IMG/VR virus record: IMGVR_UViG_3300047550_006186
From: a virus
DNA length: 25,444 nucleotides
Direction: 5' to 3' (one strand)
A program made the translations under genes and the position numbers. Below, in pieces: positions 20,973 to 25,302 of this stretch (position 1 is the first letter of the stretch; every line of letters begins with the position of its first letter). A model generated the notes under the pieces. It searched no databases. It was not told where the DNA came from and saw only the letters and a program-made list of their open reading frames with translations.

Positions 20973-21980
20973 ATGCGACGCTTGCTAGCCAGCCTAGCAT
21001 TTGTTTTGTGTAGCAATTTTGCTAGTGCCAATTCCATTGGAAATATAACAGAAATTACCGGATCTCCTGGCACAATCCAGAGATCTGGTAATCTGTTGGA
21101 AGGTCAAGCCAATGCCAGTCTGTGGAGCATGGACGTATTGGTCACTCAAAATGGTAGTGCCAAACTCAAATTTGTAGATAATACCCGAATCAGCATAACC
21201 GAACAAAGTAAATTGGTCATAGATGAATATGTTTATGATCCAAGGCAGGGAGACAACAGCAAGCTGGCCATGAAAGTCACAATGGGCACTGTTCGTTATG
21301 CAAGTGGCCAAATAGCCAAAATCAATCAACAAAAAGTTGACCTGCAAACTCCCACAGCCACTATAGCAGTTAGAGGCACAGATTTTTTCATGACTGTTGC
21401 TGAAACTGGAGAAAGTTTTGTGGTGTTGGTGCCCAGTTGTGATCAAGCAGGCAATTGCCGCACGGGCCGGATACAAGTGGGCAATGACGCAGGCATGGTA
21501 GAGCTGAATGAACCATTTACTGCAACCAGCGTTGTGAGTAGAAATCAAGCCCCTACTCCGCCCAGCAAAATCAACATAAGCGAAAGCAATATAAACAATT
21601 TTATGATTGTGGCTCCTCCTCCAGGATTGAAAGGGGCCAGTGCCAGCAGCACAAACAATCAACAATCAGAAGTGACCTTTGCTCTTGTACGCAACAATGG
21701 ATCAAAGAATACAAACACAAAAGAATCGGATATGGAAGCATGGCCACTTCTCTTGACAAAAGAAACTGGCTCTGTCAAAACCAACAGCACTCCCATAATT
21801 ATAGAAAATTCACCCGGTGGATCAACCACTGCCAGTAGATCCACTGCTGGCTATGGTCAAAGTCACATTAGATTTTTGGATGGAAGTACTGGCACTGTGA
21901 CCATCAATCAAGGTGACAACGCAACCACTCAAGTGGGGGTGGTAGGCAGTAACACATTTATCATCAAACAAAGTCCATGA
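20973..21980 (+). CDS. FecR-domain periplasmic protein
   Basis: Signal peptide ...NFASA|NS. The FecR-domain pattern is present, including ...KVDLQTPTATIAVRGTDFFMTV (cf. v.TP.a.vavrGT.F.v). Confidence 0.75.
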   Translation: MRRLLASLAFVLCSNFASANSIGNITEITGSPGTIQRSGNLLEGQANASLWSMDVLVTQNGSAKLKFVDNTRISITEQSKLVIDEYVYDPRQGDNSKLAMKVTMGTVRYASGQIAKINQQKVDLQTPTATIAVRGTDFFMTVAETGESFVVLVPSCDQAGNCRTGRIQVGNDAGMVELNEPFTATSVVSRNQAPTPPSKINISESNINNFMIVAPPPGLKGASASSTNNQQSEVTFALVRNNGSKNTNTKESDMEAWPLLLTKETGSVKTNSTPIIIENSPGGSTTASRSTAGYGQSHIRFLDGSTGTVTINQGDNATTQVGVVGSNTFIIKQSP

Positions 21981-23245
21981 AGAAATTTATTCTACTAGTT
22001 TTGGGATTGTTGATCACACTGAGTGGGCCTGCATGTGCTCAGAATGGACTGAATTATACCATCTATGCAGGCACTGGTGCTACTCCCAGCAGATGTACCA
22101 CTTGTACAAAGCAACTTGCCACTGGAACACTCAGCATTTTGAATTATGACTGGGGTGGTGGATTGATTCTCAACAGTGGCCAATATGATAGAGTGCTTGT
22201 GAGAATCTCTGGATATATTTTGTGGCCAGGATCAGGAAGCAAAACTGTACAATTTTATGACAGGTCTGATGATGGATTTCATTTGACCATCAACAACACT
22301 GTGGTTATCAACAATTGGCAAGAACAGGGACCCAGCAACTACAACGGAAGTGGAAGTATCACTCTACAAGGAGGGCAATATTATCCTGTGGAAATCTGGT
22401 GGTATGAGAATGGTGGTGGTGCTGTTCTGCAATTGAATTGGAACATTGGCAGTGGCATTGTGGTGATTCCCAGCTCAGCGTATTATACAGCCAGTCCTGT
22501 GAGACCCACCAGTGAACAATCAAGTAGCATCCTTTTGAGACAACAAGAGATGAAATCTCAAAACAGCGGAGTTTATATTGATCAGATGGGCACTGGCAAT
22601 AATGTGCATATTCAACAAGCAGCTGGCACAAACTTGGTGAGAGGCATAAACAGAGTAAATGCTCCTTTGAATGGAGATTACAACAATCTAACAATTGTTC
22701 AGAATGGCAAAACTCAACAGAGAGTTGATTTGGCCGTAACTGGTAACACCAACAATATTACAATCTATCAAGGTGCCACCAACACTGGACAAACTCTCTC
22801 CAGTGACAGTGGCGGACATTATACTCAAACTCAAACAACTGGCAATGGTAATACTGTGAATATAGTTCAAAATAATCAGGGTGGTGTGAATAGTGGTCAT
22901 CATGTGGAAAACACAATAAACGGAAGTAACAACACAGTATCAATTACGCAAACGCAAGACGGTGCAAAAAGCACCTTTGGCAATACTCAAGGCAACAATA
23001 ACAGTGTGACTATCCAGCAATCTGGATCTGGACAACATTATGTGGACCATGTCAGCCAGGGTGGACTCAACAATGTGTCAGTTGTTCAATCAGGCAACAA
23101 CAGTCATGCAGCTCGTATTCAGGCCACCAACAATGGTGGACCAGTCACAGTGGACCTGAATCAAACCAATGCAGCCAGTCAAAGTATCACCATCCAACAA
23201 TCATGTGTAGTGTTGGCTGGTTGCACAGTGAGGATCACACAATGA
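21977..23245 (+). CDS. PA14 domain fused to C-terminal curlin repeats (candidate major amyloid subunit with lectin-like head)
   Basis: Signal peptide ...GPACA|QN. PA14 signature GYILWPGSGSKTVQFYDRSDDGFHLTINNTVVINNW ... QGGQYYPVEIWWYENGGGAVLQLNW. About eight repeats of N(N/T/S)(V/L/I)x(I/V)xQxG every ~23 aa (NNVHIQQAAG, NNLTIVQNGK, NNITIYQGAT, NTVNIVQNNQ, NTVSITQTQD, NSVTIQQSGS, NNVSVVQSGN, QSITIQQSC). Confidence 0.75.
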   Translation: MKKFILLVLGLLITLSGPACAQNGLNYTIYAGTGATPSRCTTCTKQLATGTLSILNYDWGGGLILNSGQYDRVLVRISGYILWPGSGSKTVQFYDRSDDGFHLTINNTVVINNWQEQGPSNYNGSGSITLQGGQYYPVEIWWYENGGGAVLQLNWNIGSGIVVIPSSAYYTASPVRPTSEQSSSILLRQQEMKSQNSGVYIDQMGTGNNVHIQQAAGTNLVRGINRVNAPLNGDYNNLTIVQNGKTQQRVDLAVTGNTNNITIYQGATNTGQTLSSDSGGHYTQTQTTGNGNTVNIVQNNQGGVNSGHHVENTINGSNNTVSITQTQDGAKSTFGNTQGNNNSVTIQQSGSGQHYVDHVSQGGLNNVSVVQSGNNSHAARIQATNNGGPVTVDLNQTNAASQSITIQQSCVVLAGCTVRITQ

Positions 23246-25302
23246 AATTACGCAAAATCGTACTGAGTGTCAGTTGGTGTTTGGTGACACTAGCTGTATT
23301 GACAGCAATCAAAATCTACAATCCCAGTTTTGTGGAAAGCATCAAATTGAGATATTTTGACACGTTGATCATCAACAAAGATCCCACACAAAATAATTTA
23401 TGGGTGGTGAACATTGATGAACAATCCATTGATCAACATGGCCAATGGCCGTTTGCTAGGTCAGTCTATGCAGATTTGATTGAGCAACTGTACAATCGTA
23501 ATGCAGGATTGGTGGTTTTTGGTGTGTTGATGAGTGAGCCAGATCGACAAGGCATGGACCACAAACTGATCTCCACCTTGAAAGAATATCCCACAATTTT
23601 GACAAGTGTTCCTGGTAACACCAACAAGAATAGTGCAAGGAATCCAGGCGCTGTTGTAATAAACGATGACCACATTGATTTGATTGTCAGCTATCCTGGA
23701 TTGATTGCCAATATTTCGCTAATAGAAAACTCCGCAGCAGGAGTGGGTATAGTAAACCAAATGCCTGAATTGGATGGTGTAAATCGCAGAATACCTCTTG
23801 TGGTCAGCAGCAACGGCAAATTGTATCCGCATGTCAGTTTGGAAACATTGAGGATCCTAGCAGAGGACAGAGCCTTTCAAGTAAGATTGAATGAGCAAGG
23901 TATAGAAGCACTGAGAATTCCCAAATTTGGCGCTATTCAAACAGACAGTTTGGGAAGAATTTGGATTGACTGGAGTCAAAAATACAACGTTGCCAGTATG
24001 CAAGATCTACCTGAAGATTTTCAAGGTGCTGTGGTAATTGTGGGCACAAGTGCAGCTGGCATAGCCAATCCTGTGAGCACAAGCATGGGGGCTCAATTTC
24101 CACAAAATGTGCAAGCAAGTGTGATAGCCACCTTGATCAATCAAGTGAACATTCTACGTCCGGACTTTGCAGACAACCTGGAAATTATTGTTATGGTTGT
24201 GCTATCCGCGTTGTTGATTTTGTTGAGCAAAAGAATTTATGTGGGTATTGCTGCACTTGTGATTGTGGTAGCTGGAAGTATCATGGGTAGTATCTGGGCT
24301 TATCATGCTTGGGGAATTTTGTTGGATGTGACTTTTCCTTGTGCGACCATAATATTGGTCAGCTTGCATGCCTACGTTGTAAAATTCCTGAGTGAATTCT
24401 TCCAAAAGCAGCAAATCAAAAAGCAATTTGGCAGCTATGTGAGCCCTGTGATTGTGGAACGTTTGCAGAAAAATCCAGAACTCATTCGATTGGGTGGTGA
24501 AGAAAAAATTCTCACTGCTGTGATGACAGACATGAGAAACTTCACAGGATTGGGTGAGAAGTATGGAGCAGATGTGGAAGGCTTTACCAAAATCATGAAT
24601 GAATATATGACAGCTATTGCGCAACCGGTGTTTGCCAATGATGGTTGTTTGATCAAATTCATTGGTGACGCCAGTTTGCACATACACGGAGCACCTTTGG
24701 ATGATGATCGTCATGCTTATCATGCTGTAAAAACCACCATAGAAATGATTGAGGCTGTGGAACAGTTCAACCAAAAATTGGAAAAAGATGGCAAACCCAG
24801 AGTGGGCATGGGCGCAGGCGTGAACACAGGAAAAATACTTGTGGGCAACATCGGCAGTGAGGGCAAGATGGGTTATGATGTGCTGGGAGATCCGGTGAGT
24901 GTGGCTGCCAGATTGGAAGGGCAAACCAAAGGTTATGGTGTGTTGGTAATTATTGGACCAGATACTTACCAGGAGGTACGAGAAGATTTTCTATGTTTGG
25001 AATTGGATTGCATTGCGGTCAAAGGCAAGAATGTGGGATTGAATATCTATACACCTTTATTGAACAATCCTGCTGATAAACAGCCTGCTTACCAATTAGC
25101 TCAGCAACATCATCAACAGATGATTGCATCCTACAGAGCCCAAAATTTTGATCAGGCAATAGACATGTGCAAAGAACTCATGGGCCAATTTGATCAACAG
25201 ATGGATCATTATTATGAAATTTGGATTGCCCGTTGTTTACAAATGAAAGAATATAATCTCTCCAAGGATTGGGATGGAATTTATCACGCAACCAGCAAAT
25301 AA
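23242..25302 (+). CDS. CHASE2 sensor / class III adenylate-guanylate cyclase with C-terminal helical (TPR-like) tail
   Basis: CHASE2: VVNIDEQSIDQHGQWPFARSVYADLIEQL, plus three TM helices (~aa 325-400). Cyclase: TAVMTDMRNFTGL, KFIGDAS, GMGAGVNTGKILVGNIGSEGKMGYDVLGDPVSVAARLEG. ATG 23242 (after GAGGA) overlaps the preceding stop (ATGA). Confidence 0.9.
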   Translation: MKLRKIVLSVSWCLVTLAVLTAIKIYNPSFVESIKLRYFDTLIINKDPTQNNLWVVNIDEQSIDQHGQWPFARSVYADLIEQLYNRNAGLVVFGVLMSEPDRQGMDHKLISTLKEYPTILTSVPGNTNKNSARNPGAVVINDDHIDLIVSYPGLIANISLIENSAAGVGIVNQMPELDGVNRRIPLVVSSNGKLYPHVSLETLRILAEDRAFQVRLNEQGIEALRIPKFGAIQTDSLGRIWIDWSQKYNVASMQDLPEDFQGAVVIVGTSAAGIANPVSTSMGAQFPQNVQASVIATLINQVNILRPDFADNLEIIVMVVLSALLILLSKRIYVGIAALVIVVAGSIMGSIWAYHAWGILLDVTFPCATIILVSLHAYVVKFLSEFFQKQQIKKQFGSYVSPVIVERLQKNPELIRLGGEEKILTAVMTDMRNFTGLGEKYGADVEGFTKIMNEYMTAIAQPVFANDGCLIKFIGDASLHIHGAPLDDDRHAYHAVKTTIEMIEAVEQFNQKLEKDGKPRVGMGAGVNTGKILVGNIGSEGKMGYDVLGDPVSVAARLEGQTKGYGVLVIIGPDTYQEVREDFLCLELDCIAVKGKNVGLNIYTPLLNNPADKQPAYQLAQQHHQQMIASYRAQNFDQAIDMCKELMGQFDQQMDHYYEIWIARCLQMKEYNLSKDWDGIYHATSK

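Follow-up and report, generated by a model that had tools for sequence, protein, structure and literature searches.

Curli genes in phages were first reported by Zaragoza-Solas et al. (2020; PMC7029224), and Wittmers et al. (2022; PMC9599517) described a viral type VIII secretion cluster including genes for a FecR protein, a histidine kinase and an adenylate cyclase, present at every ocean station sampled and, in its pelagiphage version, expressed in metatranscriptomes. In that study the FecR protein was read as an iron regulator, and CHASE2 is not mentioned in the text. The proposals for the purpose of phage curli include aggregation ('sibling capture'), superinfection exclusion and lysis timing, the last put forward for the secretion pore (Buchholz et al., 2022; PMC9004378). 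FecR-domain and CHASE2 proteins are documented genomic partners in bacteria, where the pair signals through either a histidine kinase or a cyclase of class III and the phenotypes concern biofilms or surfaces (PMC5192318; PMC9239204; PMC5498481). Here we analysed the viral DNA of IMG/VR record IMGVR_UViG_3300047550_006186, a stretch of 25,444 nucleotides (the window, in what follows), in which a FecR-domain gene and the gene of a CHASE2 adenylate cyclase lie within a curli operon. The system is a further case, in a jumbo-phage-like lineage, of the published viral curli module with FecR and adenylate cyclase. In the literature examined we found no link of curli genes to jumbo phages, and no account of a curlin-like tail on the FecR protein, of the serine variant of the cyclase, of a free-standing open reading frame (ORF) corresponding to the cyclase extension, or of the pairing with type I secretion gated by cyclic nucleotides (cNMP) seen in SAR116 bacteria, all of which are described below.

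By its gene content, the region from 19011 to 25302 is one phage-borne type VIII secretion (curli) operon with the FecR/CHASE2 pair embedded in it. Its six genes are co-oriented on the plus strand with junctions, in order, of 0, -1, +4, -4 and -4 nt, and all the Pfam domain scores used to assign them exceed the curated cut-offs. The first gene, csgF (19011-19451; CsgF, 65.6 bits), encodes a putative curli assembly or anchoring factor with a signal peptide; its mechanically called ORF opens at TTG 18987, and the likely start is ATG 19011, which has AAAGGA just 5' and is equivalent to the ATG called on an identical public contig. It is followed by csgG (19452-20288; CsgG, 177.6 bits), encoding the predicted outer-membrane curli secretion channel, a lipoprotein with the lipobox LLAGC that is 44-60% identical to CsgG of related phage loci and of the phages HTVC008M and Melnitz, and by the gene of a T/N/S/G-rich curlin-repeat subunit of 226 residues with a signal peptide (curlin 1; 20288-20968; Curlin_rpt, 24.6 bits, cut-off 20.7). 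The second half of the operon encodes a secreted FecR-domain protein of 335 residues with a signal-peptide-like N-terminus (20973-21980; FecR PF04773, 39.2 bits, cut-off 24), a second curlin-type subunit of 422 residues with a signal peptide (PA14-curlin; 21977-23245; PA14, 59.1 bits; GLEYA, 29.8 bits) and the CHASE2 class III adenylate cyclase of 686 residues (23242-25302; CHASE2, 127.3 bits; Guanylate_cyc, 58.1 bits). Signal-peptide-like starts are found on all five proteins other than the cyclase. The start of the latter was placed at ATG 23242, and not at ATG 23203 of the longest ORF (699 residues), because the gene is called there on the identical public contig and all homologues begin there. 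A hairpin resembling an intrinsic terminator, with 17 pairs of which 8 are G-C and a T-run behind it, located on the plus strand at 25305-25350, 3 nt past the cyclase stop codon, marks the predicted operon end. A scan for sigma-70 promoters was uninformative, with 17 sites against 17.0 expected from shuffles, and searches of the window for tRNA, tmRNA and Rfam families were negative. The 224-nt gap between a DUF3307 gene and csgF also contains a perfect hairpin with a 15-bp stem (18905-18940; GTGAACTACCACGCC ... GGCGTGGTAGTTCAC) and no T-run, which may be a processing, attenuation or regulatory site.

A sequence-only reading of this region had presented the FecR-domain protein and the CHASE2 cyclase as known genomic partners placed in a secretion operon. 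The partnership agrees with the three bacterial studies cited above and with the adjacency of the two genes in all four SAR116 loci, and the pair lies inside the secretion operon, since csgF, csgG and curlin 1 are upstream. That reading had also held that both genes flank and overlap the major subunit gene through ATGA couplings that force near-stoichiometric co-expression with the fibre subunit. The two overlaps are real (21977-21980 between FecR and PA14-curlin, 23242-23245 between PA14-curlin and cyclase), but the word 'major' was an assumption, the gene in question being a lectin-curlin fusion and a simpler curlin preceding FecR. The argument for forced stoichiometry does not stand, because all six genes are equally tightly packed and the curlin-cyclase overlap is not conserved, the only recurrent one being that between FecR and the next gene. 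The reading had also missed the phage origin of the DNA and the earlier publication of the module, FecR and cyclase included, for pelagiphages (PMC9599517).

Conservation of the cassette was assessed in two sets of viral loci, designated below by L numbers. In a first set of 14, tblastn with the cassette proteins recovered one and the same order in 12 cases, from csgF through csgG, curlin and FecR to the cyclase and mostly with a second curlin ahead of the latter; the remaining two lack the upstream DNA. A profile scan with the FecR family then yielded at least 595 viral loci, 80 of which were fetched and scored with local hidden Markov models (HMMs); loci with at least 2.5 kb 5' of FecR were taken as informative upstream, and those with at least 8 kb 3' as informative downstream. 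The genes csgF, csgG and curlin lie 5' of FecR in 76 of 76 informative loci, and a CHASE2 domain lies 3' of it in 49 of 52, accompanied by a cyclase domain in 48 of the 49; the three loci with a CHASE2 match and no cyclase-domain match are all cut by the locus end, for which reason the idea of a CHASE2 protein with a kinase output was rejected. The linkage of the pair to csgG and csgF, which also extends to HTVC008M and Melnitz, is thus conserved. Judged by gene content and order, many diverged phages have kept the six-gene set together as one block, and the conservation of the FecR/CHASE2-cyclase arm comes close to that of the pore. In most loci the FecR stop and the following gene share 4 nt, and in minimal cassettes this next gene is the cyclase itself, directly overlapped in L014 (the offset is +354 nt in L045, L057 and L063). 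At the junction between second curlin and cyclase, gaps or inserted genes, such as those for DUF6321 or a glycoside hydrolase family 19 (GH19) enzyme, are common.

Individual loci show further variations. On the 374-kb phage contig L018, genes for a heme oxygenase and a ferredoxin-dependent bilin reductase (2209-3403) lie just 5' of csgF, and a DUF6321 protein and a TAT-signal GH19 hydrolase (8301-9999) are encoded between second curlin and cyclase. Two loci are rearranged: in L019 (10001-15721) the cyclase is on the plus strand and csgF-csgG-curlin-FecR downstream on the minus strand, in a convergent arrangement, and in L051 (10174-12168) the cyclase is downstream on the opposite strand. The label of L019 as a Luteolibacter metagenome-assembled genome (MAG) was rejected, given its phage clamp loader, endolysin and ligase genes, which identify a mis-binned phage contig. 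A single scan of genome contigs with motifs specific to the serine-variant cyclase returned 18 loci, among which no proven cellular operon of csgFG, FecR and CHASE2 was found, the csgFG-bearing ones being on MAG contigs (including L021, L022 and L027); this agrees with Wittmers et al. (PMC9599517).

The FecR-domain protein comprises a signal peptide, an N-domain (about residues 20-216), a linker (about 217-282) and a C-terminal curlin-like beta module (283-335). In an alignment of 46 family members the N-domain has a mean column identity of 66% with invariant Cys156 and Cys162, the linker measures 48-95 residues, never less, with a mean column identity of 32%, and the terminal block of about 50 residues is conserved with the pattern ...G.VTI.Q.GD.A...VG.GGSNT..IRQ.... 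AlphaFold2 models are in line with this division, giving a signal-peptide-like helix (2-16), a beta N-domain at 23-187 with a predicted local distance difference test score (pLDDT) of about 90, a disordered segment at 222-269 (pLDDT below 50) and six C-terminal strands at 276-332 (pLDDT 83-88). Foldseek matched the N-domain to the FecR-type anti-sigma domains 4M0N and PupR 6OVK_R with a probability of 1.0, and residues 19-89 to the cell-surface anchoring domain 5IX9 of the adhesin MpIBP, with a template modelling score of 0.73 on the target, a root-mean-square deviation of 1.2 A and 30% identity. Apart from FecR proteins themselves, the only matches of a tail HMM among 1382 ORFs were the curlins of the cassettes (E 4e-4 to 0.1), and hhalign aligned the tail with the end of the 226-residue curlin family, covering its last repeat and C-terminus, with an E-value of 5.6e-5, so that the relation of tail and curlin comes from our own HMM and hhalign comparisons together with the AlphaFold2 strands. 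The tail is present in 69 of 74 viral loci; the SAR116 FecR protein (225 residues) lacks it and aligns to residues 1-138 alone. The FecR protein, carrying a curlin-like C-terminal repeat, may therefore be a component of the fibre or of its secretion besides being the partner of a sensor.

An identity as an iron regulator of the FecR/PupR type was considered and rejected: a periplasmic FecR domain is present, but neither a cytoplasmic anti-sigma domain nor a transmembrane anchor accompanies it. No sigma-70 r2/r4 family (extracytoplasmic function, ECF, sigma factor) or TonB-dependent receptor family was found among the scanned ORFs of the window. Since anti-sigma domain, ECF sigma factor and TonB-dependent transducer are all missing, the name is not justified, and the label 'iron regulator' for the FecR gene of viral curli clusters should be dropped.

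The cyclase is predicted to consist of a transmembrane helix (residues 10-26), a periplasmic CHASE2 domain (about 30-305; the Pfam match spans 22-325), transmembrane helices (310-396), the catalytic domain (about 415-605) and a C-terminal extension (611-668). In the AlphaFold2 model the helices 10-26 and 310-396 enclose a confident beta/alpha domain, consistent with a topology in which CHASE2 is flanked by transmembrane helices and lies N-terminal to a cytoplasmic output domain. The closest solved structures by sequence are the catalytic domain of Synechocystis Cya2 (2W01, and the phytochrome fusion 6FHT), Pseudomonas aeruginosa CyaB (3R5G) and Spirulina CyaC (1WC0). D430, K472, D476, D546, R557 and the KGK lysines K594 and K596 are invariant in the family alignments. 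They include both metal-binding aspartates, whose absence would have counted against the sequence-only reading, D430 and D476, which align with the metal aspartates of CyaC, CyaB and Cya2, as well as R557, the transition-state arginine. The enzyme is predicted to use ATP and hence to be an adenylate cyclase, because its substrate-specifying residues, the invariant K472 (in IKFIGD) and D546 (in YDVLGD), are those of adenylate cyclases. The transition-state asparagine is replaced by Ser553 (PVSVAARLE), a substitution shared with 40 of 40 close relatives, Melnitz and SAR116; the HTVC008M cyclase alone keeps the asparagine, and it also lacks the C-terminal extension. The change from Asn to Ser, together with the extension, is best read as a subfamily trait and not as phage decay, because the cellular SAR116 cyclases share the Ser motif and the extension.

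This extension had been described before as helical, TPR-like and located at residues 600-699 or so. It is present, with the numbering shifted to about 587-686 by the corrected start at 23242, and AlphaFold2 makes it helical (611-632, 636-646, 649-652 and 655-668; pLDDT 85-92), ending in ...DWDG.Y.ATSK, but its TPR character lacks Pfam support: no TPR family matched it even at E <= 5, and the only trace was one weak multi-repeat match, in which residues 22-49 of the extension hit the TPR protein P0304 in six repeated stretches (whole-protein E 1.1e-6). A search of 1.84 billion representatives with the extension gave 103 matches, the TPR protein being one unrelated match among them. Those of full length are CHASE2 cyclases that carry the module at their very C-terminus. 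Most of the 11 best short matches are pieces of cyclases or chimeric gene calls that finish with the whole extension, and none of the 11 has the N-terminal domain of the free-standing ORF found within the cassettes. The latter is a small, cytoplasmic ORF of about 105-115 residues, without a signal peptide, located directly 5' of csgF in 8 of 75 loci, whose C-terminal half matches the extension HMM with E-values of 1e-10 to 1e-6 (pairwise identity to the window extension is 27% in L064). It lies at 5413-5757 in L048, 5361-5687 in L064, 5356-5700 in L069 and 4407-4751 in L087, occurs also in L055, L058 and L080, and is weakly matched in L006 (2304-2741). A cyclase domain is absent from all eight of these loci, which include all three informative cyclase-less loci (L064, L069 and L087). 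Because it is found as a free-standing ORF in cassettes without cyclase, the extension is, as far as gene distribution tells, an autonomous unit that the cassette keeps even without the enzyme.

The second curlin of the window has a PA14 lectin-like domain at residues 22-157 and curlin-type repeats at about 200-422, with at least seven regularly spaced N-x-V-x-I-x-Q repeats in its C-terminal half. Its Curlin_rpt score of 13.4 bits is below the cut-off of 20.7, and for orthologues encoded at the equivalent place the scores are 33.1 bits in HTVC008M, 21.8 in Melnitz and 20.3 in L018. The N-terminal domain, of carbohydrate-binding type, varies, being PA14 in the window and HTVC008M and F5/8 type C in L002, L008 and L011, with none detected elsewhere, and the C-terminal repeats are conserved despite this exchange. 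The subunit thus has the appearance of an amyloid scaffold presenting a lectin, in keeping with ideas of adhesion or aggregation. In related loci the gene lies at 7975-9987 (L002), 7522-9351 (L008), 4593-6227 (L011) and 6640-7965 (L017).

The nearest cellular relatives of the cyclase, with 36-37% identity, belong to SAR116/Puniceispirillales (L023-L026). In all four loci the CHASE2 cyclase gene is preceded by type I secretion genes (C39-ABC transporter, HlyD and OEP) and immediately followed by a FecR-domain gene, and cNMP-binding domains are found on ABC or HlyD components of these operons, which have the look of cyclic-nucleotide-gated secretion (L023 1328-8706; L025 4416-12688; the others in L024 and L026). 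Together with the published Burkholderia, Campylobacterota and Sinorhizobium meliloti cases, these loci support, by analogy, a view of the FecR/CHASE2 pair as a portable envelope sensor, which in the SAR116-type subfamily would be coupled to secretion via a cyclic nucleotide. None of the components of the phage cassette bears a cNMP-binding domain. A possible viral reader of such a signal is a 222-residue cNMP-binding protein (Pfam, 64.9 bits) of one sublineage, encoded divergently beside csgF on two independent viral contigs with a minimal cassette (L014 510-1178, minus strand, the same as L037 8001-8666; and L040 8001-8636), whose matches in the PDB cover the cNMP domain alone and not the C-terminal region.

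As the most likely mechanism we propose that the FecR protein, together with the CHASE2 domain, senses how curlin export or assembly stands and adjusts the synthesis of cyclic AMP (cAMP) accordingly, a reading that we regard as about as probable as not and in which the interaction of the two proteins, the signal and the cAMP reader are what we infer. The operon would in this way possess a signalling route of its own from the envelope to the cytoplasm. In the infected cell the CsgF/CsgG pore would export the curlins to form a lectin-decorated amyloid fibre. The FecR protein, at the pore or in the periplasm, would act as the accessory partner of CHASE2, by analogy with the bacterial pairs, and through its curlin-like tail it would attach to curlin subunits or to the fibre. 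Synthesis of cAMP by the cyclase would then report on curlin export or the assembly of the fibre, or on a cue that arrives at the fibre from outside, the cAMP to be read by a CRP-type protein of the host or, in some phages, by the cNMP-binding protein beside csgF; the helical C-terminal module of the cyclase would be a separate protein-interaction unit.

Several observations weigh against this proposal. Podovirus pelagiphages always have FecR and merely frequently the cyclase (PMC9599517), and 3 of the 52 informative loci (L064, L069 and L087) are without it; therefore, FecR has a role independent of the cyclase. No physical or genetic interaction of FecR and CHASE2 proteins is reported in the three studies of bacterial pairs (PMC5192318; PMC9239204; PMC5498481), and in S. 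meliloti the FecR-domain protein SMc02177 is dispensable for signal perception (PMC5498481). On the side of the enzyme, the loss of the transition-state asparagine counts here as well, and AlphaFold2 modelled the catalytic domain poorly, several segments falling below a pLDDT of 50. On the side of the tail, the hhalign probability of the match to curlin is 66%, and Pfam Curlin_rpt has no match there. As for the reader, a phmmer search with the SAR116 cNMP-binding domains found no cNMP-binding protein in the window or in most loci, and L039 has a protein of the 222-residue type without a cassette.

The main alternative is that the FecR protein is chiefly structural, as a trans-pore tether, nucleator or cap, and that its link to CHASE2 is secondary. 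The tail would join the fibre outside or block premature polymerisation in the periplasm, and the disulfide-bonded N-domain, too bulky for the CsgG constriction, would stay in the periplasm like a retention module of the LapA/MpIBP type. We consider this unlikely but worth serious attention, given the three-part architecture of the protein, with a folded N-domain, a linker of 48-95 residues and a curlin-like tail at the very C-terminus, alignable with the final repeat of the curlin family, the resemblance of residues 19-89 to 5IX9, the retention of FecR in cyclase-less cassettes both here and in Wittmers et al. (PMC9599517), and the role of chaperone or gate left vacant in phage cassettes, which are without CsgE, CsgC and CsgH both in the window, HTVC008M and Melnitz and in Wittmers et al. 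(PMC9599517). It has to face the SAR116 loci, which keep the adjacency of FecR and CHASE2 without curli and without the tail, and the minimal cassettes, in which FecR overlaps the cyclase directly; moreover, the likeness of tail and curlin is modest and missed by Pfam. Merging this alternative with the sensory-pair reading gives a trans-envelope tether, with the tail in the fibre or nucleating it, the linker (at least 48 residues) running through CsgG/CsgF and the N-domain touching CHASE2 in the periplasm. We hold such an arrangement to be improbable; if it existed, fibre assembly, load or ligand binding outside would be passed mechanically to the cyclase, and the phage would gain a cAMP read-out of contact between cells or between cell and particle.

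Other explanations start from the cyclase. It could be a host-takeover gene, whose cAMP reprogrammes host metabolism through the CRP regulon or times lysis via the CsgGF pore, the block being transferred as a unit. Phage cyclases do occur outside curli clusters (the cyaA matches of Acinetobacter phages), a lysis-timing role for the pore has been proposed by Buchholz et al. (PMC9004378), and the position of the cyclase is flexible, with genes inserted after curlin 2 and the opposite strand used in L019 and L051. We nevertheless find this explanation improbable as well, as linkage persists in 49 of 52 loci despite about 33-43% identity and different phage types, a periplasmic CHASE2 domain with a conserved secreted partner implies sensing at the envelope and not constitutive cAMP, and the C-terminal module is kept beside csgF when the cyclase is lost. 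A further explanation makes the cyclase domain dead or weak through the Asn-to-Ser change and the protein a membrane scaffold acting through CHASE2 and the C-terminal module. Mutating the transition-state asparagine of characterised class III cyclases strongly lowers kcat, Ser553 takes its place in all 40 close relatives and Melnitz, and the module can exist without the enzyme. Against this, no other catalytic residue varies and few parts of the protein are as conserved as the catalytic domain, which is unexpected for a pseudo-enzyme; serine can still donate a hydrogen bond, and the Ser-variant SAR116 relatives lie in operons with cNMP-binding transporters, which implies that a cyclic nucleotide is made. 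This last explanation thus appears to us very improbable. Returning to the proposed sensing by FecR and CHASE2, the high conservation of the FecR/cyclase arm argues that cAMP signalling belongs to the function of the module.

The surrounding genes bear on the kind of phage that carries the operon. The window is phage DNA, probably of a jumbo phage as judged from its relatives. Downstream, an identical Logan contig goes on with genes for rIIB and DNA polymerase III alpha, and the best matches of rIIB are in Xanthomonas phage XacN1 (385 kb), Pseudomonas phage PA5oct (287 kb) and Ralstonia phage RsoM2USA (344 kb). Relatives of the cyclase lie on 14 IMG/VR viral contigs and one JGI contig of 374 kb (L018), and those of FecR on viral contigs measuring 212-372 kb; the window itself holds neither capsid nor tail genes. 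Its cargo genes, unusual for a phage, include PurM, CTP synthase and PurN (2355-5580), and ClpX, translation initiation factor IF3, Hsp20, ClpS and dUTPase (10511-12321 and 15704-17657), and a PTPS-like enzyme is further encoded. The Hsp20-ClpS pair recurs 5' of the cassette in L003, L006, L013 and L018. In the window the genes 5' of csgF are those for DUF3307, an unassigned ORF, dUTPase and ClpS, with no histidine kinase upstream of csgF, unlike the published podovirus versions; in myovirus versions a histidine kinase before csgF is not universal either (annotations of Melnitz and HTVC008M). The window also encodes a beta-helix protein of the pectate-lyase fold, a possible depolymerase or tail-spike-like protein (293-1465, plus strand), a zeta-toxin/AAA_33 kinase (14927-15577, minus strand) and, among the genes for nucleotide metabolism, a TnpB or IS605 OrfB-type protein with Cas12f1-like TNB, OrfB_IS605 and helix-turn-helix domains (6326-7519, minus strand), for which no Rfam RNA family was detected at gathering thresholds. 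On the identical contig L001, about 1.9-3.2 kb past the cyclase stop (13445-14755), there are genes for a small cREC_REC receiver-like protein and, next to it, for a member of the arginase family.

Compared with known systems, the operon is closest to the pelagiphage module of HTVC008M, Melnitz and HTVC023P-type podoviruses, which is likewise phage-borne, contains csgF, csgG, curlin, FecR, second curlin and cyclase, and has no csgE, csgC or csgD. The cultured T4-like Pelagibacter phage HTVC008M and the Methylophilales phage Melnitz are annotated with the same six-gene order, Melnitz with the labels 'FecR domain protein' and 'adenylate/guanylate cyclase catalytic domain', and the second curlin of HTVC008M carries PA14 as in the window. 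The window cyclase is 40% identical to that of Melnitz and 33% to that of HTVC008M, the identity of CsgG being about 44%, and the backbone around it is jumbo-phage-like, whereas pelagiphages have T4-like Kyanoviridae (HTVC008M/Melnitz type) or podovirus backbones. The curli systems of Escherichia coli and Salmonella (csgBAC-csgDEFG) share with the phage cassette the CsgG lipoprotein channel, CsgF and secreted Q/N-rich strand-turn-strand subunits, but the cassette is without the CsgE gate, the CsgC chaperone and the CsgD regulator, has FecR and the cyclase in addition, and fuses a subunit to a lectin-like domain; furthermore, cAMP-CRP acts on E. coli curli from outside the operon, whereas the phage cassette has its cyclase within.

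For the FecR/cyclase arm the likeness lies elsewhere. The Burkholderia BiofilmReg operon, the Campylobacterota CHASE2-cyclase cluster and S. meliloti cyaD1/smc02177 also place a secreted FecR gene beside that of a membrane protein with periplasmic CHASE2, but they are cellular, are not located beside csgFG, and have FecR proteins extended by LysM or other parts where the phage protein has its curlin-like tail. The SAR116 pair agrees with that of the window in the Ser variant (YDVLGDPVSVAARL), the extension, the adjacent FecR gene and the tie to a secretion system; it differs in that the system is type I secretion, the FecR protein has 225-231 residues and no tail, and its gene is 3' and not 5' of the cyclase. 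FecR/PupR anti-sigma regulators share the FecR fold of the N-domain, but they have a cytoplasmic anti-sigma domain and a transmembrane anchor where the window protein has just a cleavable signal peptide. The retention module of RTX adhesins (the MpIBP RIN domain 5IX9; LapA-type) has local structural and weak sequence likeness to FecR residues 19-89, with a profile E-value of about 1, and these adhesins join a folded periplasmic plug to an exported fibre-forming part, which suggests a functional analogy; they use, however, type I secretion through a TolC-like pore. Taken with these comparisons, the window places the curli module and its FecR/CHASE2-cyclase arm also in very large phages unrelated to pelagiphages, and the tail, the Ser subfamily, the free-standing module and the cNMP-gated relatives make sensing by CHASE2, a long-standing gap, experimentally approachable.

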